A stretch of DNA of 29,712 nucleotides from a bacterium (GTDB lineage: Bacteria; CLD3; SB21). The DNA lies in NCBI GenBank assembly GCA_013360215.1, contig JABWCP010000034.1:1-29712 (forward strand), given 5' to 3'. The notes under the pieces were generated by a model. The model was not told where the DNA came from and ran no database searches. It saw only the letters and a list, made by a program, of their open reading frames with translations. Positions within the stretch are counted from its first letter, which is position 1. Each line of letters opens with the position of its first letter. A program made the translations under genes and the position numbers. This document shows positions 4,488 through 29,673 of this stretch, one piece after another.

Positions 4488-4640
4488 GGATTCACTCCTG
4501 ATTTCAGACGGTGTGTACCAATGAATACCGTCAAAAAAAGTTTTGTGTGGATGGATATAGTGCAGAACCGAAATTACTACTGCATATCAATGATAAAAAA
4601 TTCGATCCTCTAGCGCACCTCCATGAAAATGTAGTATATT

Positions 4641-12910: not shown

Positions 12911-13918
12911 ATGTTTTCAACCATATTCATCATCATCGCCGGTACCGCCATCACCATTGCCGGTATCACCGCGTATAACAAAATCAAAGGCCTGATTCTC
13001 AGAAAACCCAAAGGCTTCCATCTTAACCTCGTCGAGTTTTTCCTCGTGCCGGTCGTGGCGCTTCTGATCGTTTTCGAGATATGGTCGCGCATCGTGGGTA
13101 CCCAGGAAGTGCACGCTCTGGAAATGAGCGGCAACATGCTCTGGGCGCTCGAACACGTCTCACGCGGCACCGGTAATTGGGGCGAACGTTTTTCTCTGCG
13201 CAATGTATTTGGTATCCGCGTCAGCGACGGCACGTACCTTTATAAAAAATCCATGGAAGGCAATTTTCAACGTATCGCTCAAAAAGAAAATATCGCCTGG
13301 TGCTGGGATGATGAAACGATCGTCGGTGTCGAATCTTCGACCGGCGATGTGAAATACACGATTGATCCCGATCGGTTTGAATCGTTACCGGCGTTTCGCG
13401 ATGGGGTGGCCGGTTTTGATATGAAAGCCGATGGTATCATACGTGCCACTAATAAATCCGGTCAGACGATAAACATTGACCCGCTCCATTTTACGGAAAT
13501 CGCTGCACCGCCGGATACAATAGCATCCGAACCCATTACGGCTTCGTCGGATTCTTTCAAGTTTGCTATGTCCGATACGACGAATGCGCAATTGGTCAAC
13601 GCGGCCGGCCAAATTATTTCTAAAGACATTTTAACGCACGGGCGGATTTTGCAAGTGGATCCCGTTCAAAAAATCATCATCACCCGGCATTATGAGAATA
13701 ACGATCCGCAGGATTTTATCATATCCGCGTACCTTTTTAACGGGACATTGCGCTGGCAGGTACGCTATGATCAACTCGGTGTTCGGCGTTTTTTCCTCAA
13801 AAAGAGCTTATTGGCGCACAGCCTGATCGCCGATGAACGGTTTATATTTTCAGCCGGCAACTTTGTCGTCGCATTGGATATTGCAACCGGCAGGCTTTTA
13901 TGGAAAACGGCGTTATAA
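12911..13918 (+). CDS. Hypothetical membrane-anchored protein (2 N-terminal TM helices, C-terminal PQQ-like beta-propeller-like region)
   Basis: 335 aa. Hydrophobic segments FIIIAGTAITIAGITAY and FFLVPVVALLIVFEIW. The C-terminal ATGRLLWKTAL resembles PQQ-repeat signatures. Confidence 0.5.
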   Translation: MFSTIFIIIAGTAITIAGITAYNKIKGLILRKPKGFHLNLVEFFLVPVVALLIVFEIWSRIVGTQEVHALEMSGNMLWALEHVSRGTGNWGERFSLRNVFGIRVSDGTYLYKKSMEGNFQRIAQKENIAWCWDDETIVGVESSTGDVKYTIDPDRFESLPAFRDGVAGFDMKADGIIRATNKSGQTINIDPLHFTEIAAPPDTIASEPITASSDSFKFAMSDTTNAQLVNAAGQIISKDILTHGRILQVDPVQKIIITRHYENNDPQDFIISAYLFNGTLRWQVRYDQLGVRRFFLKKSLLAHSLIADERFIFSAGNFVVALDIATGRLLWKTAL

Positions 13919-13958
13919 GAATACCCTTCTTTAAAGAAACTATGTTCGCAGATCGGAT

Positions 13959-13975
13959 CGATTATTTTATAATCG
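13959..13975. promoter_or_regulatory. Perfect palindrome CGATTAT-ttt-ATAATCG in the promoter region of the hydroxyproline operon (candidate operator)
   Basis: 7-bp inverted arms with a 3-bp spacer, 72 bp upstream of the first gene of the cluster (ATG 14047). A GGAGA Shine-Dalgarno-like element sits 8 bp before the ATG. Confidence 0.3.
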
Positions 13976-14046
13976 CGTTTTAAAAATTTATTGTCTTTCA
14001 AATATTCTGTGATATATTACACGTATATTACAAATGGAGATAAAAC

Positions 14047-14943
14047 ATGCATTCCACATGGCAAGGAATATTTCCTGCAACGACAACTAAATTTAAACCC
14101 GACTTCAGCGTAGATTATGCGGCGATCGAAAAGCATACGACGTGGATGCTGGAAGCCGGAATTCACGGCCTCGTTGTTCTGGGTTCTCTTGGAGAAAACC
14201 TCACCCTCACCGAAGACGAAAAACTCGCCATACTCAAAACGGCATGCAACGTTTGCGCCGGAAAAATCCCGGTCATTGCAACCGTGATGGAAACTTCCAC
14301 GGCCAAGGCTTGTGCTTTTGCAGAAAAAGCTGCACGCGCCGGAGCACAGGGATTCATGGTATTGCCCGGCGTTCCGTATCCGTCCGATGCCCGCGAAACG
14401 ATCGCACATTACCGCACGATCGCCAAAGCAACCGACATCCCGATCATGATCTACAATAATCCGGTGGCTTATAAAGTAGACATTACACCGGAAATGTTTG
14501 CGGAAATGGCGGACGAACCCCATTTTGTAGCGATCAAAGAATCGTCCGATAATATTAGACGCGTGACGGATATCTATAATCGCGTAGGAAACCGTTATCG
14601 GATTTTTTGCGGCGTGGATGATTTGGCTATGGAAGCGCTCACTCTTGGCGCGGACGGATGGTTGGCCGGGTTGGTAGTAGCTTTCCCGCATGAAACGGTA
14701 GCAATCTACAATCTCGTGCGCGAAGGTAAAATGCAACAAGCGCTCGAAATCTACCGATGGTTCATGCCGCTGCTGCATCTGGACGTAAACACCAAATTTG
14801 TCCAAAACATCAAACTGACGGAACAATTGGTCGGTGTCGGTTCGGAGATCGTTCGTGCACCACGATTGCCTTTGATCGGAGATGAGCGTGCGCGCGTCGA
14901 ACATATCGTCCGGGAAGCTTTAGCCAAGCGTCCGAAGCTCTGA
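14047..14943 (+). CDS. DapA/DHDPS-family lyase. In this context, 1-pyrroline-4-hydroxy-2-carboxylate (Pyr4H2C) deaminase of D-hydroxyproline catabolism.
   Basis: 298 aa. DHDPS/NAL fold with Schiff-base Lys in FVAIKESS, GLVVLGSLGE and IYNNP motifs. It is the first gene of a hydroxyproline catabolic cluster (epimerase, D-Hyp dehydrogenase and KGSA dehydrogenase follow). Confidence 0.7.
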   Translation: MHSTWQGIFPATTTKFKPDFSVDYAAIEKHTTWMLEAGIHGLVVLGSLGENLTLTEDEKLAILKTACNVCAGKIPVIATVMETSTAKACAFAEKAARAGAQGFMVLPGVPYPSDARETIAHYRTIAKATDIPIMIYNNPVAYKVDITPEMFAEMADEPHFVAIKESSDNIRRVTDIYNRVGNRYRIFCGVDDLAMEALTLGADGWLAGLVVAFPHETVAIYNLVREGKMQQALEIYRWFMPLLHLDVNTKFVQNIKLTEQLVGVGSEIVRAPRLPLIGDERARVEHIVREALAKRPKL

Positions 14944-15040
14944 CAAAAAATCTGATTTACTATATCCGATCCGGGATGTACATTGATCGGCACTTCTTTG
15001 GTTACACATTCTGTAGTTCTCATCTAAACAAATATTACAC

Positions 15041-16486
15041 ATGACCACCGATATCAAACGTTTGTATATCAACGGTTCATGGATTGACGGTGGCGATACG
15101 TTTGCCAATATCAATCCGTCCGATACGTCCGACCTGATCGCTCATTATGCCGTCGCCACGGCCGATCATGTACATGATGCCGTCGCATCCGCCAAACAAG
15201 CTTTCCCCGCATGGTCGCTTTCCACTCCGCAACAACGGTTTAATATTCTCGACGCCGTTGGTGGTGAAATTTTAGCACGGCAAGATGAACTAGGCCGTTT
15301 GCTGTCGCGAGAAGAAGGAAAAACATTGCCCGAAGGAATCGGCGAAGTGGTACGCGCCGCGATGATATTCAAATTTTTTGCCGGAGAAGCTCTGCGTGCA
15401 GGTGGCGAACGCATGGCCTCCGTACGACCGGGGGTTATGGTAGATATGATGCGCGAACCGCTCGGTGTCGTCGGACTCATCACGCCATGGAATTTTCCGA
15501 TCGCAATACCGGCGTGGAAAATAGCCCCGGCATTAGCATTCGGTAACTGCGTCGTTTTTAAACCGGCTGAATTAGTCCCCGGTTGTGCATGGGCTTTGAC
15601 CGAAATTTTACACAAAGCTGGAATTCCCGCCGGTGTGTTTAACTTACTCATGGGCAAAGGATCTGTCATCGGTCGTACGATCGTTGAGCATCCCGATGTA
15701 AATGCCATTAGCTTTACCGGCTCCGTCGGTGTCGGACGACAGGTTGCGGCACAGTGTGCGGCACGTTTGGCCAAAGTACAACTGGAAATGGGAGGGAAAA
15801 ATCCTCTCGTAATCTTAGATGATGCCGATCTGTCCGTCGCCGTCAACGCCGCCGTACAAGGTGCCTATTATTCCACAGGCCAGCGATGCACGGCGTCAAG
15901 CCGCCTTATCGTGACCGAAGGTATTCATGATGCATTTGTGAAAGCTCTGACGGACAAACTTCAAACCCTGCGCATAGATGATGCATTGGCGCAAGGCACG
16001 GATATCGGCCCGGTCGTTGATCTGACACAGATGAATAAAGACCTCGAATACATTACTATCGGCGCACAAGAGAATGCACATCTTGCGTTTGGCGGTGTCG
16101 CACTCGAACGCAGCAAAAAAGGTTTTTACCTGCAACCCGCGCTGTTTACAGAGACTACCTCTGCCATGCGAATCAACCGCGAAGAAATTTTCGGCCCGGT
16201 CGCGTCAGTGATACGCGTTAAAAATTATGATGAAGCCTTAGCTATGGCCAACGATACCCCGTTCGGTCTGACGTCGGGTATCTGCACGACTTCGCTTAAA
16301 TTCGCAGAACACTTCAAGCGGCACGCGCAGGCCGGCATGGTGATGATCAATCTGCCCACTGCCGGAGTGGATTATCATGTACCCTTCGGAGGACGCAAAG
16401 GCTCCAGCTATGGGGCGCGTGAACAAGGCACGTATGCACGCGAATTTTATACAACAGTAAAAACGGCATATACCTTTGCGGGGTAA
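15041..16486 (+). CDS. NAD(P)+-dependent aldehyde dehydrogenase, probable alpha-ketoglutaric semialdehyde dehydrogenase
   Basis: 481 aa. Catalytic Glu in LEMGGKNP and catalytic Cys in TGQRCTASSR. GSVGVG NAD-binding motif. Position in the Hyp cluster. Confidence 0.75.
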   Translation: MTTDIKRLYINGSWIDGGDTFANINPSDTSDLIAHYAVATADHVHDAVASAKQAFPAWSLSTPQQRFNILDAVGGEILARQDELGRLLSREEGKTLPEGIGEVVRAAMIFKFFAGEALRAGGERMASVRPGVMVDMMREPLGVVGLITPWNFPIAIPAWKIAPALAFGNCVVFKPAELVPGCAWALTEILHKAGIPAGVFNLLMGKGSVIGRTIVEHPDVNAISFTGSVGVGRQVAAQCAARLAKVQLEMGGKNPLVILDDADLSVAVNAAVQGAYYSTGQRCTASSRLIVTEGIHDAFVKALTDKLQTLRIDDALAQGTDIGPVVDLTQMNKDLEYITIGAQENAHLAFGGVALERSKKGFYLQPALFTETTSAMRINREEIFGPVASVIRVKNYDEALAMANDTPFGLTSGICTTSLKFAEHFKRHAQAGMVMINLPTAGVDYHVPFGGRKGSSYGAREQGTYAREFYTTVKTAYTFAG

Positions 16487-16488
16487 CT

Positions 16489-17127
16489 ATGAAAGTCAGT
16501 CTCACCGATCAGGCCTACGATAAAATCGAAGAGATGCTCGTCACGTTAAAATTCAAACCCGGAACGATCATATCCGAACCTGAAATCATCGAACGGATCG
16601 GCATGGGGCGCACTCCGGTCCGCGAGGCTTTATTGCGATTGGGCAAGGAACACATGATCAAAGCCATTCCGCGCAAAGGCATTTATATCAACGAAATCCA
16701 CATCACCGATCACATCGCGTTGATGGAAACGCGTCGGGCACTGGAACGCATTATTGCTATGCGTTCGGCCAATCGCGCTACGGCGGAACAGAAAAAAGAA
16801 CTGACCCGCCTCTCGCAACGTATTGTGGATGCCGCGAAAAAAAATGATATCGAAACGTTCATTCATGCCGACCATGCGTTTGACCTTATCATCAGTGAAG
16901 CCTGTCGCAATCCGTATGCCTCCGAAGCCTGTGCTTCGCTTCGCGCGCATTGCCGACGCTTCTGGTATCGTTTTCATCATGATCAGGATTTGGTAACTTC
17001 CGCTAAACTGCACGCTGAGGTTATGAGTGCTATCGTCGCAGGTAATGAAGTGCGCGCGGGTACCGCCTCCGACAAACTGATGGATTATCTGGATCAGATG
17101 ACGCGCGTTGCGATGAATAAAGGATAA
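16489..17127 (+). CDS. GntR-family transcriptional regulator (FadR subfamily, FCD ligand-binding domain)
   Basis: 212 aa. N-terminal winged HTH (ISEPEIIERIGMGRTPVREALLRLGKEHMI) and all-helical C-terminal domain. Its start is 2 nt after the ALDH stop (TAAcuAUG). Confidence 0.8.
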   Translation: MKVSLTDQAYDKIEEMLVTLKFKPGTIISEPEIIERIGMGRTPVREALLRLGKEHMIKAIPRKGIYINEIHITDHIALMETRRALERIIAMRSANRATAEQKKELTRLSQRIVDAAKKNDIETFIHADHAFDLIISEACRNPYASEACASLRAHCRRFWYRFHHDQDLVTSAKLHAEVMSAIVAGNEVRAGTASDKLMDYLDQMTRVAMNKG

Positions 17128-17204
17128 GAATTAGAATTTAGAATTTAGAATTTAGAATTTAGAATTTAGAATTTAGAATTTAGAATTTAGAATTTAGAAT
17201 TTAG
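17128..17204. repeat. Heptanucleotide tandem repeat (AATTTAG)n: 10 perfect copies plus one degenerate copy (gaattag), 77 bp
   Basis: Read directly: GAATTAG AATTTAG x10. It begins immediately after the GntR stop codon and ends 6 bp before the ATG of the 4-Hyp epimerase gene (17211). Confidence 0.95.
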
Positions 17205-17210
17205 GTCATT

Positions 17211-18212
17211 ATGTCACGACATACATTTTCATGCATTGATGCACATACCTGCGGCAATCCGGTACGCGTTGTTACCAGCGGCGGTCCGGCACTCTTAGGC
17301 GCTAATATGAGTGAACGCCGTCAGCACTTTCTTCGCGAATTCGACTGGATACGTAAAGCGCTTATGTTCGAACCGCGTGGTCACGATATGATGTCAGGCA
17401 GCATTTTTTATCCTCCGATTGATCCGGCCAATGATGTTGCGATATTATTTATCGAAACGAGCGGCTGCCTGCCGATGTGCGGTCATGGCACGATCGGCAC
17501 AGTCACTGTGCTCATCGAGCAACGTTTGATCACGCCGCGCACACCCGGCATCCTCCGCTTGGAAGTTCCCGCCGGTATCGTCGAGGCACATTATACAATC
17601 CAACATAATAAAGTGACCAGTGTTCGCATCGTCAATATCCCCTCGTTCCTCCATTCGCAAAATCTTACCGTCGAATGCCCCGATCTCGGCGAAATCACAC
17701 TGGATGTCGCATACGGTGGTAATTTTTATGCGATCGTGGATCCGCAAAAAAACTTTAAAGGTCTTGAGACGATTTCTGCCGGTGATGTTTTACGATGGAG
17801 TCCGATCGTTCGCCAGCGTATCAACGAAAAATATACTTTCACCCATCCCGAAAATCCCACGATTTGCGGCTGTTCCCATTTACAATGGACGGGCGCTCCG
17901 ACACAAAACGAAGCCCACGCCCGCAATGCCGTATTCTACGGTGATAAAGCAATTGACCGCTCGCCCTGCGGCACAGGCACTTCCGCGCGCATGGCCCAGT
18001 GGGCGGCCAAAGGAAAACTCAAAACCGGCGATACGTTTGTACATGAAAGTATCATCGGAAGTATGTTTCGCGGGCGCGTGGAACGCACAACGCATGTCGG
18101 TGATTACGATGCCATCGTTCCAAGCATCGAAGGATGGGCTTACGTCACAGGTTACAATACGATTTTTATAGATACGGATGATCCCTACGCATACGGTTTT
18201 CAAGTTATGTAA
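17211..18212 (+). CDS. Proline racemase-family enzyme with Cys/Cys catalytic pair: 4-hydroxyproline 2-epimerase (or proline racemase)
   Basis: 333 aa. First catalytic Cys in SGCLPMCGHG (Cys90, nt 17478-80). Second catalytic Cys in DRSPCGTGTSARMA (nt 17967-69). Confidence 0.75.
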   Translation: MSRHTFSCIDAHTCGNPVRVVTSGGPALLGANMSERRQHFLREFDWIRKALMFEPRGHDMMSGSIFYPPIDPANDVAILFIETSGCLPMCGHGTIGTVTVLIEQRLITPRTPGILRLEVPAGIVEAHYTIQHNKVTSVRIVNIPSFLHSQNLTVECPDLGEITLDVAYGGNFYAIVDPQKNFKGLETISAGDVLRWSPIVRQRINEKYTFTHPENPTICGCSHLQWTGAPTQNEAHARNAVFYGDKAIDRSPCGTGTSARMAQWAAKGKLKTGDTFVHESIIGSMFRGRVERTTHVGDYDAIVPSIEGWAYVTGYNTIFIDTDDPYAYGFQVM

Positions 18213-18257
18213 CGGGATACGGTAAACATATAGAAAAAATTTAATTCGGATACGCAA

Positions 18258-19517
18258 ATGAGTTCAAAAAAAACAGATGTCGCCATCATCGGCGGAGGTG
18301 TGATCGGATTATGTACAGCGTATTACCTCAATAAAGCCGGCATCTCGGTTACGATCATCGAAAAAAAACAGCCCGGCTTTGGTTCGTCTTTCGGCAACGC
18401 CGGTCTCATCAGTCCTAGTCATTTCGTTCCTCTGGCGGCGCCGGGTATGGTTGCCAAAGGTCTCAAATGGATGTTTGATGCAGAAAGTCCATTCTATATT
18501 CATCCGCGCCCGGACATTGATCTTATCACATGGCTGTGGAAGTTTATGCGCGCGAGTACCGATAAGCGCATGCGCCCGGCTATGCCGGTATTACGCGATA
18601 TGACATTAGCCAGTCAGCAGCTTTTTCATACCATTGCCAATGAAGAGCGTTTTGATTTTGCTCTGGAACAAAAAGGCCTCATTCTTTTGCATGATACCGC
18701 CGAAGGTGAAAAAGCGCATCATCACGAAGTAGCTTTAGCCAATGAAGTCGGCGTTACGGCACGTATGATCTCGCGGGAGGAGATTCACCAAATGCAACCC
18801 GGCGTAAAAGTGCGCGCCACGGGCGGCGTATTTTTTCCCCAAGACGGGCATCTCATCCCCGATCAGTTTAACGCCAAGCTCACGTCGTTATTGCAAACAC
18901 GCGGTGTGCAGTTTATGAACGAAACCGATGTATTTGGCTTTGTCCCCAACGGCAAAGCGGCGGGACATCTGCGCACCAGCGAGGGTGACATCCATGCGAA
19001 TCAGTATGTCGTGGCGGCCGGCGCATGGACGTCCGATCTGCTCTACGAAATCGGTATTGCACTCCCGGTGCAAGCCGGTAAAGGCTATAGCGTGACCGTT
19101 AAGCGCGACAAGAATAATCTTACGATTCCGATCATTTGTACCGAAGCGCGTGTAGCCATTACCCCAATGGGCGATACGATTCGTTACGCCGGTACGCTGG
19201 AGTTGAGTGGTAACGATCTGACCATCAATCCGCGTCGCGTGAAAGCGATACTCCGGGCCGCAGACCGCTATCTTGAAAATTTTGATGCACAATCGTCGGA
19301 TATACAAACAGCCTGGGCCGGCCTTCGCCCGTGTTCACCGGACGGATTGCCTTTCATCGGCCGATTTAAGCGCACTCCCAACGTAATCGCCGCGACCGGC
19401 CATGCGATGCTCGGTATTACTCTAGGACCGATTACCGGGAAACTGGTCTCTGAAATTGTTACCAATGCACCCCAAACCATTGTATCACCGTTATTGGATG
19501 CAGACCGCTATGCCTGA
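18258..19517 (+). CDS. FAD-dependent oxidoreductase (DadA/DAO-like), probable D-hydroxyproline dehydrogenase
   Basis: 419 aa. N-terminal Rossmann dinucleotide motif VAIIGGGVIGLCTAYYL…IIEK. DAO-family C-terminal motif (GHAMLGITLGP). Confidence 0.75.
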   Translation: MSSKKTDVAIIGGGVIGLCTAYYLNKAGISVTIIEKKQPGFGSSFGNAGLISPSHFVPLAAPGMVAKGLKWMFDAESPFYIHPRPDIDLITWLWKFMRASTDKRMRPAMPVLRDMTLASQQLFHTIANEERFDFALEQKGLILLHDTAEGEKAHHHEVALANEVGVTARMISREEIHQMQPGVKVRATGGVFFPQDGHLIPDQFNAKLTSLLQTRGVQFMNETDVFGFVPNGKAAGHLRTSEGDIHANQYVVAAGAWTSDLLYEIGIALPVQAGKGYSVTVKRDKNNLTIPIICTEARVAITPMGDTIRYAGTLELSGNDLTINPRRVKAILRAADRYLENFDAQSSDIQTAWAGLRPCSPDGLPFIGRFKRTPNVIAATGHAMLGITLGPITGKLVSEIVTNAPQTIVSPLLDADRYA

Positions 19518-20577
19518 AAAAAAATCGGTATTTGAAAAACGCCTGCGCGCTATGCAGCGTTGGGAAGCGCCCGCATCGTGGCGGCGTATCGAAACGATCG
19601 AAGCGCATACCGGCGGTGAACCGCTCCGCATCATCATATCAGGATTACCGCCGATCAAAGGCCAAACCATTCTTCAGAAACGGGCGTACCTCAAGACGCA
19701 TCTTGATCATCTCCGTACGGCGCTGATGTGGGAACCGCGCGGCCATGCCGATATGTACGGTTGTATCATCACTCCGCCGGTGGAAAAAAATTCCGATTTC
19801 GGTGTGATTTTTTTGCATAACGAAGGTTATTCCACCATGTGCGGCCACGGCATCATCGCTGTTACCAAAGCGGCCGTAGAAACCGGACTTATTCATGCAC
19901 GCGGTACGAAAGTCACACTGCGCATTGATTCGCCCGCAGGACTGATCACTTCCATAGCCCAAATCCGGCGCGGCAAAGTGCAATCCGTTCGTTTTCTCAA
20001 TGTTCCATCGTTTGTACAAACTTTGGATGCCGTCGTCGACATACCGGGATTGGGACGCATACGTTATGATCTTGCGTACGGCGGTGCATTTTACGCTTTT
20101 GTGCACGCCGAAGATGCCGGTGTAACGATGGATGCGGCAGGATATCGCGGCCTTATCGAACGCGGCATGATGATCAAACGCGCTGTTATGCGGAGCGTAG
20201 CCATGCAACACCCATTCGAATCGGAGCTCAATTTTTTATACGGTACGATTTTCACCGGCCCGGGACATACGACCGGCGCAGATTCCCGCAATGTCTGTAT
20301 TTTTGCCGACGGCGAAGTGGATCGAAGCCCGACAGGAACGGGAGTCAGCGCGCGAATGGCTATTCACCATGCGCGCGGTGCGCTTCGCACCGGTGAACCG
20401 ATGGCCATCGAAAGCATTACAGGCAGTCGCTTTGTGTGCCGCGTTCATGCGACGACGACGTATGGTAACTACCCGGCGGTGATCCCCGCTATCGAAGGCA
20501 CGGCGCATCTCTGCGGAAAAAGCTCCTGGATTATAGATCCTGCCGATTCGCTGCAGGACGGTTTTTTCTTCCGTTAA
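19510..20577 (+). CDS. Proline racemase-family enzyme with Cys/Thr pair: trans-3-hydroxy-L-proline dehydratase
   Basis: ATG at 19510 overlaps the upstream stop (cuAUGccUGA). An alternative ATG at 19498 (in-frame, 4 codons upstream) is possible. The ORF-track start at 19456 is probably too long. First catalytic Cys retained (GYSTMCGHG). Second catalytic residue is Thr (DRSPTGTGVSARMA, ACA at 20332-34), the known discriminator of T3LHyp dehydratases versus epimerases. Confidence 0.7.
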   Translation: MPEKKSVFEKRLRAMQRWEAPASWRRIETIEAHTGGEPLRIIISGLPPIKGQTILQKRAYLKTHLDHLRTALMWEPRGHADMYGCIITPPVEKNSDFGVIFLHNEGYSTMCGHGIIAVTKAAVETGLIHARGTKVTLRIDSPAGLITSIAQIRRGKVQSVRFLNVPSFVQTLDAVVDIPGLGRIRYDLAYGGAFYAFVHAEDAGVTMDAAGYRGLIERGMMIKRAVMRSVAMQHPFESELNFLYGTIFTGPGHTTGADSRNVCIFADGEVDRSPTGTGVSARMAIHHARGALRTGEPMAIESITGSRFVCRVHATTTYGNYPAVIPAIEGTAHLCGKSSWIIDPADSLQDGFFFR

Positions 20578-20582
20578 AATCC

Positions 20583-21551
20583 ATGCGATTTATTCCAAGC
20601 GACACACTGCGTGAGTTGATCACTATGCCTGAAGCGATAACGGCAATGCAATCGGCATTTTCTGCATTATCCGATGGGTCGGCTGTTGTGCCGCTTCGAA
20701 CGACCCTTGACTTTCCCGGTTCCGACGCCCGTGCGCTGATCATGCCGGCTTATCATTCATCATCTCGGTACTTCACGACCAAAATAGTGACGGTATGTCC
20801 GACCAATGCCGCGCGCCATCTTCCGCTCATCCACGGTACACTGATCGTTACGGACGGATCCACAGGAAAAACACTGGCACTGATGGATGCAGAGTGGATT
20901 ACGGCTTTGCGGACTGGTGCGGCTTCCGGACTGGCCACGGAATGGATGGCTCTTCCCGATGCGCATACATTAGGAGTTTTCGGGACAGGTGCGCAGGCCT
21001 ACGAACAGGTGCGTGGCGTCATGAGTGTACGGAAATTAACACGGATTATTATATTTGGCCGCGATCCCCAAAAAACAACTACGTTTTGTAAAACTGTTTC
21101 AAATCAATTTGCAATTCCTTGTTTTCCCGCTCAAGCGCCGCAAGAGGTTTCCCAATGTGATATCCTCTGCTGCGCAACCAATGCGCATAACCCGGTTTTT
21201 GAAGATAAGTATCTCACGCACGGTACGCACATCAATGGTATCGGCGCATTCAAACCCGCAATGCGTGAAATACCATCAGCGACTATAGCACGCGCTCGCA
21301 TTATCGTAGATCAACGCGCATCCGCATGGCGTGAAGCCGGCGACTTGATCCTCGCTCAAAAAGATGGAGTAGTCGCTGAAGATTGCATTGCCGGCGAAAT
21401 CGGCGAAGTCGTCACGCATAAAACTTCCGGACGTATATCCCGAGAACAAATCACCATCTTCAAGTCCGTAGGTAATGCGATTCAGGATAATGTAATTGCA
21501 TCCATGGCTTATGAACGTGCCCTCAAAGCGGGAATAGGAACGGAGATTTGA
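20583..21551 (+). CDS. Ornithine cyclodeaminase/mu-crystallin-family protein, probable delta1-pyrroline-2-carboxylate reductase
   Basis: 322 aa. OCD/mu-crystallin fold with NAD(P) Rossmann motif GVFGTGAQA. Located 5 bp downstream of the Cys/Thr dehydratase gene. Confidence 0.65.
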   Translation: MRFIPSDTLRELITMPEAITAMQSAFSALSDGSAVVPLRTTLDFPGSDARALIMPAYHSSSRYFTTKIVTVCPTNAARHLPLIHGTLIVTDGSTGKTLALMDAEWITALRTGAASGLATEWMALPDAHTLGVFGTGAQAYEQVRGVMSVRKLTRIIIFGRDPQKTTTFCKTVSNQFAIPCFPAQAPQEVSQCDILCCATNAHNPVFEDKYLTHGTHINGIGAFKPAMREIPSATIARARIIVDQRASAWREAGDLILAQKDGVVAEDCIAGEIGEVVTHKTSGRISREQITIFKSVGNAIQDNVIASMAYERALKAGIGTEI

Positions 21552-21754: not shown

Positions 21755-22363
21755 CTAGCCTATATGAAAAGACGGGAAGTTATTAGGATTAGAACCTTTC
21801 CCACCTTCACCATAATCATGATCTATATTAAATAAGTTATATTTAATTATTCCATACATAACACTTGTTTGTGAGCTGCGCTTCGAGATAATTAATCCGG
21901 GGGAAATACCCGAGGCAAGTTTATCCGTTCGTTCAGAATAAAATAAAAAATAATTAGTATAGTTCAGCAAAAGAGACATTTGCATTTTCGAATTATCAGG
22001 AGTAACTCTATATTTTAACATTCCTCTTAAGCCAAAATCACAACTTTTTATATTCGCACCCAACACAACTTTAGAGAGTAACACCGGTGCGGCATACCCA
22101 CTCCACAAACTTGCCCCTACATTTAGGCGGTCACTTATACCATACGATAACCTAGGTTCAAGTATTGCGGGTGTAATCGCTTTTACAAAATGATCTCTTG
22201 GTTTTTTTGACCATTCTTCTGGACCACCTGAAGCGCTAGTCAGTACACTGAATTTCCCACGATTTAATGTTTCCGCATCTTGGTGTTCAATTATACTTAT
22301 ACCGCCACAACTAATTTGAGGTAAGGAAAAAATAATTATACAGCATTTAACAATTTTATTCAT
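21755..22363 (-). CDS. Secreted hypothetical protein, outer-membrane beta-barrel-like
   Basis: 202 aa. Signal peptide plus alternating hydrophobic pattern. The ATG lies 36 bp beyond the distal end of the last repeat element (22399). No matching element follows its stop. Confidence 0.45.
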   Translation of the reverse strand: MNKIVKCCIIIFSLPQISCGGISIIEHQDAETLNRGKFSVLTSASGGPEEWSKKPRDHFVKAITPAILEPRLSYGISDRLNVGASLWSGYAAPVLLSKVVLGANIKSCDFGLRGMLKYRVTPDNSKMQMSLLLNYTNYFLFYSERTDKLASGISPGLIISKRSSQTSVMYGIIKYNLFNIDHDYGEGGKGSNPNNFPSFHIG

Positions 22364-22398: not shown

Positions 22399-22590
22399 AC
22401 ATAACGGATCGCGACAATCTGCGATGGTGCGGTATAAGGTTTCGAAAATTTCAAACCACTCGTGTCTCGCGCCACGCTGTATGTGAAGTGCGAACTCGAT
22501 TTATTATTTGACATTATTAAGATTACCCTTAAAATCCCATTTTAAATATTGTACGAGCCCTGAATGAACAGATGGACCGCGAATTATTCG
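22399..22590 (-). repeat. attC-like element copy 1 (degenerate 5' stem arm)
   Basis: acATAACggatcgcgac … cgcgccacg … gaacagatggaccgcgAATTATtcg. It is the most distal copy. Confidence 0.5.
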
Positions 22591-23403
22591 TTGGACTTAT
22601 CAGTTTTTAATAATTTTGTCCTTACGAAAATCTTGTAAGATGCTTTTCTGAAGAAAAACCCGTCACCTTTAGTGAATACACCATCGGAATAAATGGACAT
22701 TTAATGCTCCATATTCTATTTTGATAGTTTTGATTGCATATTTGGCTTCCCATATCACTGCATCACTTTTAATCGGTTGCAACATAAATAAAAAAAACTT
22801 CTTGTTTCTCTACCGCTAGAAGTGATACTTATGAAGTAGCGCCGGTATATTTATCTGTATACGTTCTAATTCCAATGTTTTCAATTGCAGTATTATCAGA
22901 TTTTGTATGGTAATAGTCAGCAGTTTCCATACTTAAAATTAGATCTGCACAAACTCGTGTACAATTTCCTCAACTGTTTGACTGATTAATAATCTATTTC
23001 CTTCTATAATCTTTAATTCAATTTGGTAGGTATTTAGCATTTCTTCTAATTTTTTTAAACGCACCATGAAATTCCCTATTTATAAACTCTATCTACATGT
23101 TTACGGGTACTTTTTTATCAGGTAGATCCCACAATTTCTTTAATTAAGATTTAAAATTACCTCGCGCACAGGAAATAACTAAAAATAGAAATGTAAAAAA
23201 AATATTTTTCAAAAGACTTTCAATTTTTAAACGTTCTGTGACGTTTGCATAACTTTTCATAGTATTAGATGCGCCATTGTTCGAGGTATCTTTATCTTTA
23301 AACTTTCTACTCTTGGTACTCGCATCTATCTGAACCGAGATATGTCATCAAATATCGCAGTCTGGGGAAACAAATATAGAGCATTTCGATTTCATTGCCG
23401 TTA

Positions 23404-24030
23404 TCATGGGGTTATGATCGGCGTATCCGCACTGAATAAAAGTCCAATAGAAATTGACCCTGACCATAAATTTTTTAATTGATTTGCCGAAACTGAGAAA
23501 ACAAGAGAAGCCTTGGAAGTCAGTTGTTTAGCGCTTGAAATACCCAAAAAAACACCAGTTTGTGGTTTAGCGCTACGTTCTCCACTCAAAATCATCACAA
23601 CCCCATATCCAAGTTCCGGCGCCAAACGAAAATCATTTCCTTCAGTAATATCTACGGACATACCACCGCTAAAGTTAATTGATTGAGGCATAGCAAATTT
23701 TGCACGTTTCCATTTCAAAAAAGCAAAGTCAACAAAAGGATGTAGGCGCCCTGAGGCAGAATACATTTCAATTTCTGGGGAAAAATAACTAACTTCTTTT
23801 TCATCAGATTTCAATGTTCCACCGACAATGCTGAATTCGATACCTTCTTTGAAGCTAATCGATAAATATCCTGCTTTTGACGAGGAATTTTTACTTCCAT
23901 ACGCATGAACACCGCCCATACTCATGACAGAACCATCACAATGCGAAACTAGCCGCCTTTGAGCGCTAGAAGGGGTGATTAAGAACTGAAGCAGAGCCGT
24001 TAAAAACAATAGTTTTTTCATATTCAACAT
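23404..24030 (-). CDS. Cassette ORF: secreted outer-membrane beta-barrel-like protein (208 aa)
   Basis: Signal peptide MKKLLFLTALLQFLITPSSAQ followed by amphipathic beta-strand pattern. Confidence 0.5.
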   Translation of the reverse strand: MLNMKKLLFLTALLQFLITPSSAQRRLVSHCDGSVMSMGGVHAYGSKNSSSKAGYLSISFKEGIEFSIVGGTLKSDEKEVSYFSPEIEMYSASGRLHPFVDFAFLKWKRAKFAMPQSINFSGGMSVDITEGNDFRLAPELGYGVVMILSGERSAKPQTGVFLGISSAKQLTSKASLVFSVSANQLKNLWSGSISIGLLFSADTPIITP

Positions 24031-24107: not shown

Positions 24108-24240
24108 CGTCTAATTCTACTTGCTCAACGCGCCACAATGTATTCGAACTGTAAACTCAAATTATTATTTAAAAAACAATCACTTGAAAAATCTTATTTT
24201 CTGTGTTCCGCAATCAGTGAGCAAACATCTGTGGTTATGC
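24108..24240 (-). repeat. attC-like element copy 2 (truncated and degenerate)
   Basis: cGTCTAAttc…cgcgccacaatgtattcgaact…ttattatttaaaaa…cagtgagcaaacatctgtgGTTATGC. It aligns to the 3' two-thirds of copy 10. Confidence 0.4.
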
Positions 24241-24432: not shown

Positions 24433-24553
24433 ATATAACTGTAGCGGCATGCTGCAAGTAACTATTATTTGTTAAAACTTTAACCATTCCTTGTAAAAAC
24501 CTTACTTTCAATACTTCACGAGGAGCATGCGAACAGATGGGTGCGGGTTAGAG
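24433..24553 (-). repeat. attC-like element copy 3 (short variant lacking the central hairpin)
   Basis: ATATAAC-tgtagcggcatgctgcaagtaactattatttgttaaaac…tactttcaatacttcacgaggagcatgcgaacagatgggtgcgGGTTAGAG. Confidence 0.5.
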
Positions 24554-24925: not shown

Positions 24926-24993
24926 TCAATCCTGTCGACAGCAATATATTACTCTATCAATTTAATCAGCTTTTGTTAATTAGTATTGAAGCT

Positions 24994-25182
24994 AAAAGTC
25001 TTCGGTATCCACGGTTCTGTAGCGGAGGTATTTAAAAACTTCAAATCTCTCGCGCCTCACGCCACAGTATCGGCACAATGCGGGTTACAATTATTTGCTA
25101 AAATTCTAATCAGTATCTATAAAAATCTTATTATCCATATTCTACGAGCATCGTGCGAACGGATCACTAGAAGATTAGACGC
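24994..25182 (-). repeat. attC-like element copy 4 (degenerate ends)
   Basis: …cggtatccacggttctgtagcggaggta…ctctcgcgcctcacgccacagtatcggcacaatgcgggttacaattatttg…ctacgagcatcgtgcgaacggatcac…GATTAGAC. Abuts the stop of ORF 25191..25757. Confidence 0.5.
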
Positions 25183-25793: not shown

Positions 25794-25960
25794 GTCTAAC
25801 GTTGCCTGTATCTGCGGTGCTGCGGCGTGGGGTATCTGAAAATTTTCGACTATTAGCCCCTCGCACCGCGATATGTGCCGAGACGCGTGCCCAGCTATCG
25901 TATCCGGGAGAATCTAATATTACACGTATCGAGATCGCTGCCGCTATCATGGAGTTAGGC
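25794..25960 (-). repeat. attC-like element copy 5 (textbook ends: GCCTAAC proximal and GTTAGAC distal on the cassette strand)
   Basis: + strand: GTCTAACgttgcctgtatctgcggtgctgcggcgtgggg…cccctcgcaccgcg…GTTAGGC. GTTAGGC at 25954-60 lies 5 bp from the stop (25947-49) of ORF 25947..26417. The interior is divergent from the other copies while the stem is retained with indels. Confidence 0.6.
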
Positions 25961-26417
25961 GTCTGCACAGCGCTTTTATTTTAAAAATATCACATAAATT
26001 AAACTTTGATTCATCAAAATCATTGTACTTATACTCTGCAAAAACAGCAATTTTTTGTTTGCCAACTAAAATACTATCAATATATAATGTATTATTTGTA
26101 ATACTAAACTCTACTCCTGAATCAAATGTATTTTCTTCGCTATTCCAACTCCTTAATAAACCATTTTCAACTTTATACGAGGTCTCCCCTTCATAATCAA
26201 TACAATCACCCTCATCATCATAACTCCATTCTTTTTGAGTATCGGCTGTAAACTGCATGTAAAATTCGCCCTCGTAAAGAGACTTGTTTTGCTTGTATAA
26301 CTTCCATTTTGTATTTGGAATAGATGCAATGTTGTTTTCTTTATCATCACTACAGGCTTGCAAAGCACTAAAAATTATAACGATTGTTGCGAGGCTTTTG
26401 ATAAGGAACGACTTCAT
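25947..26417 (-). CDS. Cassette ORF: lipoprotein (156 aa)
   Basis: Signal peptide with lipobox (FSALQACSD). Confidence 0.5.
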   Translation of the reverse strand: MKSFLIKSLATIVIIFSALQACSDDKENNIASIPNTKWKLYKQNKSLYEGEFYMQFTADTQKEWSYDDEGDCIDYEGETSYKVENGLLRSWNSEENTFDSGVEFSITNNTLYIDSILVGKQKIAVFAEYKYNDFDESKFNLCDIFKIKALCRRLTP

Positions 26418-26517: not shown

Positions 26518-26708
26518 GCCTAACGGTCTCCGGTATCTGCGGTGCTGTGGCGCGAGGTATATGAAAAACTCAAACCTCTCGTACCTCGCTCCACAGTATC
26601 GGCACGATGCGAGTTACAATTATCGTTAGAAATCTAATCATTACCTACAAAAACCCTGTTTTCAATAATCTAAGAGCAGCAAGCGAACGGATGGGCCGCG
26701 TGTTATTC
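26518..26708 (-). repeat. attC-like element copy 6
   Basis: GCCTAACggtctccggtatctgcggtgctgtggcgcgaggta…cctcgctccacagtatcggcacgatgcgag…ctaagagcagcaagcgaacggatgggccgcgtGTTATTC. It is 18 bp from the stop of ORF 26726..27253. Confidence 0.6.
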
Positions 26709-27303: not shown

Positions 27304-27494
27304 GGATAACGGTCTCCGGTATCCGCGGTGCTGTGGCGCGAGGTACCTGAAAACATAAAATCTCTCGTGCCTCGCGCCACAGTATCGGCATGCTGCGAGT
27401 TACAATTATTTATTAGAAGTCTACTCATTACCTATAAAAAGCTTATTTTCAACACTCTACGAGCATCGTGCGAACGGATCACCGGATGGTTATC
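27304..27494 (-). repeat. attC-like element copy 7
   Basis: GGATAACggtctccggtatccgcggtgctgtggcgcgaggtacctgaaaac…cctcgcgccacagtatcggcatgctgcgag…gaacggatcaccggatgGTTATC. Followed by only 102 bp before copy 8. Confidence 0.6.
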
Positions 27495-27596
27495 ACCTTC
27501 ACAAGCCATTAATCCAAATAATAATATCACAAGTAGGTTGGAAAAATAGAATCTCATAAAATCCTCTCTTAGTTTTATTAGAAATTGAGAGCTATC

Positions 27597-27789
27597 AGAT
27601 AACGGTTCGCGACTATCTGCGGTGCTGTGGCGCAGGGTACCTGAAAACTTTTACTATTAGTTCCCTGCGCCACAGTATCGGCATGCTGCGAGTAACTATT
27701 ATTTATTAAAAATCTAATCATTCTTTGTAAAAAGCCTACTTTCAATACTCTACGAGCAGCATGCGAACAGATGGGTCGCGTTTTATATG
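27597..27789 (-). repeat. attC-like element copy 8 (stem with compensatory changes GCAGGG/CCCTGC)
   Basis: AGATAACggttcgcgactatctgcggtgctgtggcgcagggtacctgaaaac…ccctgcgccacagtatcggcatgctgcgag…cagcatgcgaacagatgggtcgcgTTTTATATG. Confidence 0.6.
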
Positions 27790-27826
27790 TCATTGCGCTA
27801 TATTATTTTGATCAACAATCATTTTT

Positions 27827-28261
27827 TCATTCATTTAAGAATCTAAGACGAAACACCCTTTCTCCAGTCTGCTCATGTGTCTTTTCAGCGACAAATCTGA
27901 ATCCGTACTTTGCATAGAATTTGCGTCCAACTATATTTTTTTCAAAGACTTCAACAATCAACTCATTGTGAAATTCGAGTGCTTTATCTACCAACATTTT
28001 CCCAAAATTCTTCCCAATATGAGTAGGCTGAAGAAATAGACCTCCAATTTCATTTTGAATCAGCGAAACAAATCCAACAACAACACCATCAACCTCAATT
28101 ACCCACGTTTCCACATTTGGTAGATAAAGATCACGAACATTTTTCTTTTCTTGTGCTTGAAAATCTTCAGACAAGAACGGATGAGCTAAACATTGGGCAT
28201 TTTCCCATGCAGAGAGTACCGCAGATAAATCTGATTCTCTATATTTTCGAATTGAAATCAC
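27827..28261 (-). CDS. Cassette ORF: GNAT-family N-acetyltransferase (144 aa)
   Basis: Acetyl-CoA-binding motif A region (VVGFVSL…IGKNFGKMLVDKAL) and C-terminal FYAKYGF typical of GNAT. Confidence 0.7.
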   Translation of the reverse strand: MISIRKYRESDLSAVLSAWENAQCLAHPFLSEDFQAQEKKNVRDLYLPNVETWVIEVDGVVVGFVSLIQNEIGGLFLQPTHIGKNFGKMLVDKALEFHNELIVEVFEKNIVGRKFYAKYGFRFVAEKTHEQTGERVFRLRFLNE

Positions 28262-28317
28262 TTTTCACTCCATAAATTAACAACATTACAACAATAATTT
28301 CAAAAATGGGCAATGGC

Positions 28318-28508
28318 ATATAACGGTTCGCGACTATCTGCGGTGCTGTGGCGCAGGGTATATGAAAACTTTTACTATTAGTTCCCTGCGCCACAGTATC
28401 GGCATGCTGCGAGTACAATTATTTATAAACAATTTATCCATTCCTTGTAAAAACCCTACTTTCAATACTCTACGAGCAGCATGCGAACAGATGGGTCGCG
28501 GGTTATGC
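28318..28508 (-). repeat. attC-like element copy 9 (near-identical to copy 8)
   Basis: ATATAACggttcgcgactatctgcggtgctgtggcgcagggtatatgaaaac…ccctgcgccacagtatcggcatgctgcgag…gatgggtcgcggGTTATGC. It is 15 bp from the stop of ORF 28523..28972. Confidence 0.6.
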
Positions 28509-28522
28509 GTGGTGATGCTTCA

Positions 28523-28972
28523 TTAAGCATTAAATTCAGTTAACTTCTCTTTATCATACCATATCCTATATCTTTCCGGCACTAGTAAATTAACATAAGT
28601 AACAATTGAATCGATTTGCGGTGAATAATAGTTACTTACATGTGTCTGATACTTCTTTTTTTTCTTCGTAAAAGAAAATGATAGCTGCAATCCATCTTGT
28701 ACGGAGGAATTTCTATAATTGCTAAAGAACATATTCGTATCCAAGTTACATAAATAATTTAAGTATGGTGAGTCACTAAATTTTCGGCACCACACAATTT
28801 TAGGCTTTGAATCAATTTCGCCATATGATTCGATTACTGTTACACTATTCTCAAAAATTCTATAAGTGTAACCATCGCCTGTTGAATAATCGGCATTGTA
28901 AATGGATAGATAGGTGCTTCTGTTTGCACATCCACTCATAATTACTAATACAAATATTGAAACAAACTTCAT
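28523..28972 (-). CDS. Cassette ORF: lipoprotein (149 aa)
   Basis: MKFVSIFVLVIMSGCANRS signal peptide with lipobox. Confidence 0.5.
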   Translation of the reverse strand: MKFVSIFVLVIMSGCANRSTYLSIYNADYSTGDGYTYRIFENSVTVIESYGEIDSKPKIVWCRKFSDSPYLNYLCNLDTNMFFSNYRNSSVQDGLQLSFSFTKKKKKYQTHVSNYYSPQIDSIVTYVNLLVPERYRIWYDKEKLTEFNA

Positions 28973-28997: not shown

Positions 28998-29200
28998 GCC
29001 TAACGGCACGCCATAGGCGATGTGTCGTGGCGCGAGGTATCTGAAAACTTACACCTACTCGTTCCTCGCGCCACGATATATGCGAACTGCGAGCCTAATT
29101 TATTATTTAAAAATGATACATTCACCTGTAAAAACCCTATTTTCAATACCCTGCGAGCAGTGAGTGAACGCCTGTGGCGATGTTATCTGAGGCTTGAGGC
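28998..29200 (-). repeat. attC-like element copy 10
   Basis: GCCTAACggcacgccataggcgatgtgtcgtggcgcgaggta…cctcgcgccacgatatatgcgaactgcgag…cctgtggcgatGTTATCTGAGGCTTGAGGC. Stop of ORF 29203..29673 is 3 bp beyond it. Confidence 0.6.
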
Positions 29201-29202
29201 GA

Positions 29203-29673
29203 TTAATCCACAACTTTAATATCCCCATAACTAGTGTAAATCGTATTACCATGCTTAAATTTAAAAACACATCTGTATACACATCTGTATAGCCCATTCG
29301 AAATTCGATCTCCATCATCTTTATTCAAATCCCAAATGATACTATGAAACCCTTGAGACATAAACTGATCATCCATTAGGTATCTGACAATTCGTTTTGA
29401 GCTTTTAATGTACATTGTTACCTTCATTGAGCTGGCAATTTTATACCTGAATTCGATTGGACCATTGGTAGGATTCGGAAAGGCTGCAGCAACTTCAGGC
29501 GCACTAATTACTGATTCACCTTTAATTGTTACGCGCCAATCATCCTCGTCTTCAGAAATTACATCCCCTTGGCTGTCAGTTTCAGTATATCCACTAATTA
29601 CATCACTGTTGTCACATGCCAGAAGCATCAATAAGATTGTTAACGACATTGTTTTACTAAACATAATTACCAT
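29203..29673 (-). CDS. Cassette ORF: lipoprotein/secreted protein (156 aa)
   Basis: Signal peptide with lipobox (LLMLLACDNSD). Confidence 0.5.
   Translation of the reverse strand: MVIMFSKTMSLTILLMLLACDNSDVISGYTETDSQGDVISEDEDDWRVTIKGESVISAPEVAAAFPNPTNGPIEFRYKIASSMKVTMYIKSSKRIVRYLMDDQFMSQGFHSIIWDLNKDDGDRISNGLYRCVYRCVFKFKHGNTIYTSYGDIKVVD

Follow-up and report, generated by a model that had tools for sequence, protein, structure and literature searches.

Why does a hairpin repeated between the genes of a bacterial chromosome keep its arms complementary while the letters in them change, and in what form does it act? The question is raised by positions 27597-27789 of contig JABWCP010000034.1 (assembly GCA_013360215.1), a stretch of 29,712 nucleotides (nt) from a Bacteroidota metagenome-assembled genome (MAG), which was analysed at its full length and is referred to here as the window. 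These positions hold one whole copy (copy 8) of a repeat whose body, TAAC..TTTA, spans 27600-27785 (186 nt); 11-12 copies, all in a single orientation, lie between 22.4 kb and the window end. The original prediction held that an internal hairpin of this repeat, called P2 below, is maintained by compensatory substitutions and works as a folded single strand, as integron attC sites do when recognised by the integrase IntI. Our results indicate that selection keeps P2 paired. They also point toward the idea that the ~186-nt repeat is probably an attC-type recombination site of a chromosomal integron-like cassette array, in which P2 would be a selected branch of the folded bottom strand.

Hairpin P2 and the fold of the repeat

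Further copies were collected by two patterns. A degenerate pattern run on a genome collection gave two contigs of one other Bacteroidota MAG, with no recombinase near the repeats on either contig, and a hairpin pattern with a free centre gave ten short metagenome contigs and 0 matches in viral contigs. A sequence-only nhmmer profile then gathered every copy on the collected loci, yielding 23 distinct full-length bodies of 185-187 nt, TAAC to GTTA. As single-stranded DNA (ssDNA), the plus strand of these repeats folds into a three-way junction of helices P1, P2 and P3, which in copy 8 consists of the following parts.

27600..27619, + strand: P1 5' arm, made up of TAAC (crossover end AA|C), the GGTT bulge, CGCGAC, T and ATCTG
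27620..27637, + strand: P2 5' arm, CGGTGCTGTGGCGCAGGG, the hairpin in question
27638..27662, + strand: P2 loop, 25 nt, with its 5' half GGTAyCTGAAAAC conserved across stem types
27663..27680, + strand: P2 3' arm, CCCTGCGCCACAGTATCG, with G.T wobbles at two fixed positions
27681..27693, + strand: P3 5' arm (GCATGCTGC + GAGT)
27694..27746, + strand: P3 terminal loop, A+T-rich, 53 nt
27747..27764, + strand: P3 3' arm (ACTC, a 5-nt bulge and GCAGCATGC)
27768..27785, + strand: P1 3' arm, made up of CAGAT, GG, GTCGCG, T and TTTA (GTTA in other copies)

In a MAFFT alignment of the 23 distinct full copies, the 18 base pairs (bp) of P2 are paired in 98.1% of cells and in 8/18 both partners have changed; in the set of 20 distinct hairpins, which also takes in partial and divergent copies, the values are 96.6% and 10/18, the copies sharing descent, so that the cells are not independent events and the independent substitutions are few. 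None of 500 shuffles of the 20-hairpin set reached the observed values, and sliding the 3' partner by 1-3 columns lowered pairing to 27-55%. The metagenome search pattern behind part of this sample fixed the basal part of both P2 arms and left the distal pairs, the site of a GA/AG swap, free. At least seven different fully paired stem haplotypes occur, G-C to C-G flips among them, and the pairs flanking the G.T wobbles covary on both sides. In addition, no part of the element is more conserved than the P2 stem, whose identity among six divergent types is 0.72 as compared with 0.53-0.68 elsewhere, and P2 is kept where the P3 region was replaced (L003, L013:816 and window 25797).

The stems of the individual copies bear out most of what had been described for them. 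Copies 8 and 9 (27595 and 28315) carry CTGTGGCGCAGGG...CCCTGCGCCACAG and copy 7 (27302) carries CTGTGGCGCGAGG...CCTCGCGCCACAG, exactly as first quoted, and copy 5 (25793) has the gapped stem attributed to it, a decayed form of the perfectly paired type found in L013 (GCGGCGTGGGG/CCCCACGCCGC). Copies 6 and 10 had been assigned the stem of copy 7. In copy 6 (26515) the 3' arm reads CCTCGCTCCACAG, which leaves one mismatch; copy 10 (28996) reads TCGTGGCGCGAGG...CCTCGCGCCACGA, a further swap of two pairs (TCG.../...CGA) relative to the stem quoted. Maintenance of the hairpin by compensatory substitution is thus upheld, and the paired positions co-vary in P2 and in the other helices alike.

The fold around P2 is stable and covaries as a whole. 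Copy 8 folds as plus-strand ssDNA at -41.7 kcal/mol (z = -7.4), with 0/200 shuffles as stable. The outer stem P1 combines TAAC/GTTA, the GGTT bulge, CGCGAC/GTCGCG (6 bp) and ATCTG/CAGAT (5 bp), and P3 has 9 + 4 bp. Over all helices, 93.7% of cells in the structure-blind MAFFT alignment are paired and 21/46 pairs are changed on both sides, values reached by 0/500 shuffles, with slid controls at 24-50%. Segment P1b occurs in a series of complementary versions (CGCGAC/GTCGCG, TCCGG/CCGGA, TCTTC/GAAGA, GCCA/TGGC and GCCTGT/ACAGGC), and two-sided changes affect 3/5 pairs of P1c and 4/9 of P3a. P1a, the bulge, P1b and P1c together offer what is expected of an attC hairpin, namely an R box, an unpaired spacer, an L box and pairing conserved over sequence. 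A special conservation of the P3 loop was considered and discarded, its conservation not being elevated.

In 21/23 copies the plus strand gives the more stable fold, with a mean advantage of 2.2 kcal/mol over the minus strand. Three G.T pairs are fixed, two in P2 and one in the outer stem, and become A.C mismatches on the minus strand; a general strand asymmetry was rejected, as the difference rests on these three positions only. The plus strand is antisense to the ORFs (open reading frames) of the array, which makes it the bottom strand in integron terms, and the crossover AA|C mapped below falls within the 5' arm once this strand is folded, in agreement with the canonical polarity. The antisense position of the better-folding strand speaks against an RNA in the sense of the mRNA. 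We infer that the folded form is ssDNA, and we favour an element that acts as folded DNA, with an RNA-level side effect possible.

In other respects the fold departs from a canonical attC. Its main asymmetry is the 4-nt GGTT on the R'-L' arm as against 1 nt on the R''-L'' arm, with only a 1 x 2 loop further in; the extrahelical bases that canonical attC sites carry on the R''-L'' arm are therefore missing from the repeats. The body of 185-187 nt encloses a centre of ~150 nt, beyond the 20-100 nt of attC terminal structures. P2 is not the recombinase-binding stem, but one arm of the terminal structure. In this regard, the original prediction was right to look to a folded attC-like strand, as the cassette boundaries, the crossover at the AAC end, an array beside a recombinase on L012 and the antisense position of the better-folding strand indicate, but P2 is a side branch and not the R/L stem of an attC. 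As a separate observation, the crossover end forms the mini-palindrome AAC-G-GTT across the whole family (27604-27607 and its equivalents at L018:6886-6892 and the L019 sites); its GGTT stays unpaired when the site folds and belongs to the arm that is cleaved.

Scans for other functions of the repeats were negative. Rfam gave 0 matches at gathering score, and at E <= 1 it gave only hairpins resembling miRNA precursors, with 22-25 bits against cut-offs of 80-90. As had been noted, no T run follows P2 on either strand, and a terminator scan found no terminator-like site within any repeat. A sigma-70 promoter scan of the repeats gave 20 promoter-like matches where 17.3 are expected, which is chance level, and an inspection of the P3 loop by eye for Bacteroidota-type -33/-7 motifs found nothing convincing. 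Two copies have a minus-strand TTGAAA-17-AATGAT site.

Cassette boundaries, recombinase and relatives

The repeats occupy the place that attC sites occupy in integrons, 3' of promoterless co-oriented ORFs in a tandem array: the nine ORFs of the array are all on the minus strand, with repeat copies between them. The array has a G+C content of ~0.36 as compared with ~0.47 for the chromosome to its left, and all copies are confined to this one array at one locus. At least 20/23 copies end in TAAC...GTTA and so carry the AAC/GTT triplets of attC. Several R' boxes are exact consensus (GTTAGGC, GTTAGAC), and others read GTTATnn (consensus R'' RYYYAAC, R' GTTRRRY).

Complementarity runs across each cassette and not across each repeat. 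When the 9 nt to the right of GTTA in one repeat are set against the 9 nt ahead of TAAC in the next, taken as reverse complement, 6.3/9 positions match, as compared with 3.6/9 for the repeat's own left flank and 3.3/9 for the background of unrelated pairs (Mann-Whitney p = 9e-5 and 4e-8). This complementarity extends over 17-23 nt and brackets each ORF, so that the array follows the attC rule by which R'' is complementary to the R' preceding the cassette. Copy 8 and copy 9 illustrate it.

27782..27796, + strand: right flank of copy 8, TTTATATGTCATTGC, outer stem P0, complementary to the left flank of copy 9
28310..28324, + strand: left flank of copy 9 (..GCAATGGCATATAAC), the P0 partner across the GNAT cassette

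Boundary complementarity of this kind is also shown by integron cassettes and is the mark of a site-specific exchange that takes place at one end of the site. The inverted repeats that bracket the ORFs start with GTT and end with AAC, one per cassette. Their position 11 is non-Watson-Crick (G opposite T, plus strand) in 12/19 cassettes of the window lineage, and the same odd position, with G in one flank and T in the other, is seen in the relatives L018, L019 and L023, on the strand equivalent to the plus strand of the window.

Evidence for mobility comes from one case. Contigs L004 and L008, which stem from different metagenomes, share 787 nt at 100% identity; this stretch opens exactly at ATAAC, and upstream of it the two contigs are unrelated, so that an identical cassette stands behind two different neighbours, as expected of cassettes that move as units. 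From the position of the break, the crossover maps to the left, AAC-bearing end of the repeat as read on the plus strand, corresponding to R' when the coding strand is read, and each site can be assigned to the ORF that is transcribed ahead of it.

A recombinase adjoins the repeats on L012, a 4.4-kb metagenome contig with a Mur-ligase-family gene, a tyrosine recombinase on the minus strand (L012:653-1489, 278 amino acids (aa); PF00589 E = 1e-42) and three plus-strand cassettes, each followed by this repeat at 91-97% identity to the window copies. The first cassette begins G|TT, 82 nt from the start codon of the recombinase, and its two ends are complementary. The recombinase has a SAM_4-type N-terminal domain and a complete catalytic set (R135, K160, H224, R227, H250, Y259). 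Its best PDB match by sequence is the integron integrase VchIntIA (2a3v, E = 1e-36), in an alignment that jumps from 179/179 to 206/249 and leaves ~43 residues absent from the L012 protein. We take this gap, between VchIntIA residues 179 and 249, to be the site of the IntI-specific additional domain. In line with this notion, an AlphaFold model (pLDDT 88) matches XerA and VchIntIA about equally, with ~40 gap columns against the latter; its best Foldseek match is XerA (5hxy), and it has no extra helix at the position of the gap. XerC and XerD models score far below their cut-offs. Most likely, the array is served by a tyrosine recombinase of ~275 aa that resembles Xer/XerA, has no IntI-specific insertion and is encoded divergently at the array head. 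Recognition by IntI, as originally envisaged, is at odds with this result: the sole recombinase found beside these repeats is no canonical IntI, lacks the specific domain and falls below the curated cut-off. The name of its NCBI family reads 'site-specific tyrosine recombinase/integron integrase'.

Between recombinase and first cassette, L012:1490-1575 and L014:4640-4719 contain three copies of TTCGTTAA, two direct and one inverted. The region is conserved between two recombinases that are 77% identical, and these copies may be binding sites of the recombinase or operator sites.

Bacteroidota contain a very large number of homologues of ~275 aa, at identities of 50-57%. Nine were sampled and contexts were obtained for eight; generic counts of 11-of-12 inverted repeats failed to separate the two sides of the recombinase in A+T-rich genomes and were replaced by an anchored test. 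On L012 and in four homologue contexts at 53-56% identity (L019, the complete Bernardetia genome L018, L023 and L022), a GTTnnnnnnn/nnnnnnnAAC pair brackets the first divergent gene or operon, and its AAC lies 82-128 nt from the start codon of the recombinase (94-128 nt in the four). The boundary rule continues through five successive intergenic sites in L019, which are imperfect palindromes of 130-150 nt that start with AACGGTTT and end with TGTT, and it holds for two cassettes in L018. The cassettes of the homologues contain restriction-modification systems, toxin-antitoxin genes and hydrolases, a typical accessory content. We read the adjacency of recombinase and array as a family-level association.

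Other G+C-rich hairpin repeats stand at contig breaks ahead of closer and more distant homologues (L014:1-90 and 4485-4570; L016:1-140). In L014, direct GCGTTGG repeats flank these hairpins, and the hairpins enclose a helicase-like ORF of 1460 aa.

Explanations for the repeat and its hairpin

Our findings allow us to propose how an attC-type site with a P2 branch, the reading that we hold probable, would work. The cassettes would be read on the minus strand with a site after each ORF, the window covering the distal end of the array. Once single-stranded, the plus (bottom) strand would fold into the three-way junction, with the outer stem P1 as the presumed recombinase-binding stem and strand exchange at AA|C of the left end. 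A recombinase of the L012 type would act on these sites. The side arms P2 and P3 would take up the 150-nt centre; by folding locally they may collapse it, so that the distant arms of P1 meet, and together with the asymmetry of the junction they may make the two strands fold differently and thereby contribute to strand choice. A choice by junction shape is suggested because the canonical extrahelical bases are absent and the bulge lies on the other arm.

A number of results weigh against this proposal. Regarding the fold, two window copies are chimeras with mispaired P1b and P3, and outside the three fixed wobbles the strand asymmetry is nil (19 G.T as compared with 18 A.C). Shuffling the 3' arm of P2 lowers the predicted equilibrium pairing of P1 from ~0.70 to 0.61 only, and the attC-like sites of L019 and L018 have no P2-type arm, so that P2 is not essential to the system as a whole. 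Regarding the enzyme, there is no recombinase among the ORFs of the window, where the other large ORFs are all metabolic, and the contig ends inside a repeat; the link to a recombinase therefore rests on the 91-97% identity of the repeats to those of L012. The L012 protein has neither the IntI-specific domain nor a pass on a curated integron model: it scores 197 bits in two stretches on TIGR02249 (integron integrase; cut-off 265), and its best NCBIfam model is NF040815, recomb_XerA_Arch, with 211 bits (cut-off 220). IntI is reported to require the missing domain for its activity (Messier & Roy 2001, cited in PMC4792948), and the I2 helix of this domain acts through the extrahelical bases of attC (PMC4792948). 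Finally, the family is so large in Bacteroidota that the recombinase could be a housekeeping Xer that merely neighbours arrays; the L014 and L016 contigs break off within the other G+C-rich hairpin repeats, at upstream distances ranging from a few hundred bases to a few thousand, and the Balneola homologue context (L021) has no array.

A thermodynamic requirement of P2 for P1 was rejected, given the weak effect on P1 pairing. This small effect also fits an alternative that keeps the recombination site and makes P2 an arm to which a specific protein binds, whether a host factor or an additional subunit of the recombinase, or else lets it serve between cassettes as a transcriptional insulator or stabiliser. 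The high conservation of the stem, the presence of the loop 5' half GGTATCTGAAAAC in all stem haplotypes and the survival of P2 where P3 was replaced agree with a protein-binding arm, and the conserved loop half makes protein contact a live possibility. However, no binding protein was identified, and 10/18 stem pairs differ and yet stay paired, which favours shape over sequence, while the missing U-tract after the stem on either strand and the chance-level promoter matches speak against a transcriptional role. We regard this alternative as unlikely. If the repeat acted as a structured RNA, be it a small antisense RNA or an element in the 3'-UTR (untranslated region) of the cassette mRNAs, the cassette layout would be secondary. 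RNA and DNA are not separable by covariation alone, and the RNA folds are strong (-70.9 kcal/mol, z = -7.0, for the plus strand and -66.1 kcal/mol for the minus strand), but the boundary rule and the ATAAC breakpoint are signatures of DNA recombination; moreover, the better-pairing strand is antisense to all ORFs with no convincing promoter driving it, no terminator was found, and Rfam gave no match at gathering score and only generic hairpins below it. A structured RNA thus appears improbable.

The remaining explanations concern the way in which the array was assembled. Conventional double-stranded recombination of the Xer type, as in Xer-dependent modules, would render intra-strand pairing irrelevant. 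It agrees with the Xer/XerA-like character of the neighbouring recombinase, which lacks the IntI helix tied to the handling of single-stranded attC (PMC4792948), and the 10-bp perfect arm with its fixed odd position 11 resembles an 11-bp Xer arm. Against it, inspection of the boundaries by eye, without a formal dif search, showed no pair of adjacent inverted arms separated by 6-8 bp, the partner arm is located across the ORF, and strong covariation in four helices is unexpected for a duplex-only site; we find this origin quite improbable. A selfish hairpin of the REP/MITE or IS200/IS605 type, spread between genes, would have its paired changes hitch-hiking among recent copies. The elements are indeed high-copy, structured and G+C-rich within A+T-rich intergenic DNA, with many copies more than 90% identical. 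Their own ends, however, are complementary at 3.6/9 positions against a background of 3.3/9, in contrast to what is expected of MITE or REP elements, and the flanking inverted repeats bracket ORFs rather than repeats. In addition, the copies have one orientation and lie only between co-oriented ORFs at a single locus, at least seven paired haplotypes exist with 10 pairs changed on both sides, and no HUH or other transposase is nearby, so that a selfish origin seems very hard to credit.

The array, its surroundings and known systems

The repeat copies and cassette ORFs of the window are as follows.

22402..22586, + strand: repeat copy 1, divergent, with a weak fold
23250..23410, + strand: degenerate copy of the second subtype, absent from the original count
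24117..24233, + strand: partial copy 2
24438..24551, + strand: partial copy 3, 3' half only
24993..25177, + strand: copy 4, P2 decayed; P1b variant TCTTC/GAAGA
25797..25957, + strand: copy 5, second subtype, with the 5' half unchanged, P2 gapped and the 3' half different
26521..26705, + strand: copy 6, two-type chimera with P1b and P3 mispaired
27307..27492, + strand: copy 7, stem type GAGG/CCTC; P1b CCGG/CCGG
27600..27785, + strand: copy 8, the subject of this study, an attC-like body, the plus strand being the better-folding one
28321..28505, + strand: copy 9, stem type AGGG/CCCT
29001..29185, + strand: copy 10, type 3, 97.3% identical to the attC-like site nearest the recombinase on L012
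29707..29712, + strand: copy 11, cut at the window end; the public contig stops 70 nt further on, within the P2 of copy 11
21755..22363, - strand: last (distal) cassette ORF, adjoining the chromosomal ornithine cyclodeaminase gene (end 21551)
23404..24021, - strand: cassette ORF, 205 aa
24680..24925, - strand: cassette ORF, 81 aa
25191..25757, - strand: cassette ORF, 188 aa, weak outer-membrane protein (OMP) beta-barrel match
25947..26417, - strand: cassette ORF, 156 aa
26726..27253, - strand: cassette ORF, ECF-transporter S component
27827..28258, - strand: cassette ORF, GNAT acetyltransferase
28523..28972, - strand: cassette ORF, 149 aa, no family
29203..29673, - strand: cassette ORF, lipoprotein-like

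The copies at 26521-26705 and 27307-27492 are chimeras of different repeat types, with the arms of P1b and/or P3 mismatched; the former folds at just -23.7 kcal/mol. Such chimeric copies point to exchange between repeats. A second subtype (window 25797-25957 and 23250-23410; L004:977-1089; L010:131-248; L003:810-1170) retains the 5' arm and P2 and has a different, shorter 3' half; in one L003 copy, ~260 nt replace the P3 region. At 27489-27603 two repeats are only 115 nt apart and form an 'empty' cassette without an ORF, with poorly complementary flanks.

Compared with the public record JAKLJV010000015.1, the window has a 12-nt tandem duplication at ~29263-29290 (ACACATCTGTAT twice, by which the ORF gains YRCV) and a 1-nt deletion within copy 9 at ~28415; the rest of the 11.2 kb compared is identical. 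A 322-aa ORF beside the array was considered as an integrase and rejected, since it is the ornithine cyclodeaminase. The chromosomal flank at 12911-21551 holds two proline-racemase-family genes, a DHDPS-family gene, an aldehyde dehydrogenase, a DAO-type oxidase and this ornithine cyclodeaminase, and looks like a proline/hydroxyproline catabolic cluster. An intergenic stretch between two plus-strand genes (17117-17207) is a tandem array of ~13 units of the heptamer TTAGAAT.

The closest known counterparts of the repeats are the attC sites of sedentary chromosomal integrons, such as the Vibrio cholerae repeats (VCRs). Both are homogeneous structured repeats that follow promoterless co-oriented ORFs, with AAC...GTT end triplets, an R'' complementary to the R' of the preceding site and a crossover at the R' end, and both have a stem with an unpaired spacer in which pairing is conserved above sequence. 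Large attC sites are also branched, as in the 65-nt terminal structure of VCRs (PMC2727003), and the terminal structure of attC contributes to strand choice (PMC2727003, PMC5027507). Unlike attC, whose terminal structures measure 20-100 nt (PMC4889954), the site described here is 186-192 nt long, and its ~150-nt centre forms a defined three-way junction, one arm of which has 18 bp and a conserved sequence. Its extra bases, GGTT, are on the R'-L' arm, whereas the canonical ones are on the R''-L'' arm (PMC2727003), and complementarity between cassette ends covers 17-23 bp with a fixed G.T at position 11, as compared with 7 in attC.

Regarding the enzyme, the L012 recombinase resembles IntI (2a3v, VchIntIA) in its SAM_4-type N-terminal domain and its full R-K-H-R-H-Y set, and, on L012 and in the four homologue contexts, in a gene divergent from the array with an insertion point ~80-130 nt upstream. 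It is short of the ~43 residues between VchIntIA 179 and 249. With Xer-dif systems and XerA it shares a compact two-domain build of ~275 aa, recomb_XerA_Arch being its best NCBIfam model. Xer-dependent mobile modules, such as IMEX and pdif modules, likewise consist of genes bracketed by inverted arms. In contrast to them, no 28-bp dif-like core was seen at the boundaries here (by eye, with no formal dif search), large folded and covarying sites separate the cassettes, and the arrays are unidirectional and anchored beside the recombinase gene.

Taken together, the repeat agrees with attC in its array, triplets, boundaries, crossover and stem, and differs in size, in the placement of the extrahelical bases and in the domain of the integrase, which sets it outside the canonical family. 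Surveys define or select intI by its additional domain (PMC2426708, PMC9668308), so that a recombinase of this kind would not be retrieved, and integrons are reported to be rare in Bacteroidetes (PMC9024848). We found no description of the present arrangement in the literature searched, whose coverage is incomplete. It is conceivable, and we suggest it tentatively, that Bacteroidota harbour an overlooked integron-like capture system, with a compact Xer/XerA-like integrase lacking the IntI-specific domain and sites read by other marks: the AAC-G-GTT crossover end, whose bulge sits on the arm that is cleaved, an outer stem of 10 bp that is specific to the cassette and ends with a fixed G.T, and a lineage-specific three-way junction whose P2 arm would substitute for extrahelical bases in folding or strand choice.

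Integrons are in practice defined by an integrase whose extra domain grips the extrahelical bases of a folded attC. Here, arrays with the cassette recombination signatures of integrons adjoin a recombinase without that domain, and their sites carry a conserved Y-shaped fold. If this recombinase does act on the sites, cassettes came to be captured, or still are captured, as single strands by a simpler enzyme of the Xer type, and a major phylum has been undercounted in integron surveys. In that event, how a tyrosine recombinase reads DNA shape over sequence would become testable on a second architecture, independent of that of IntI and attC, for which the naturally occurring compensated variants of P2 are ready-made mutants.

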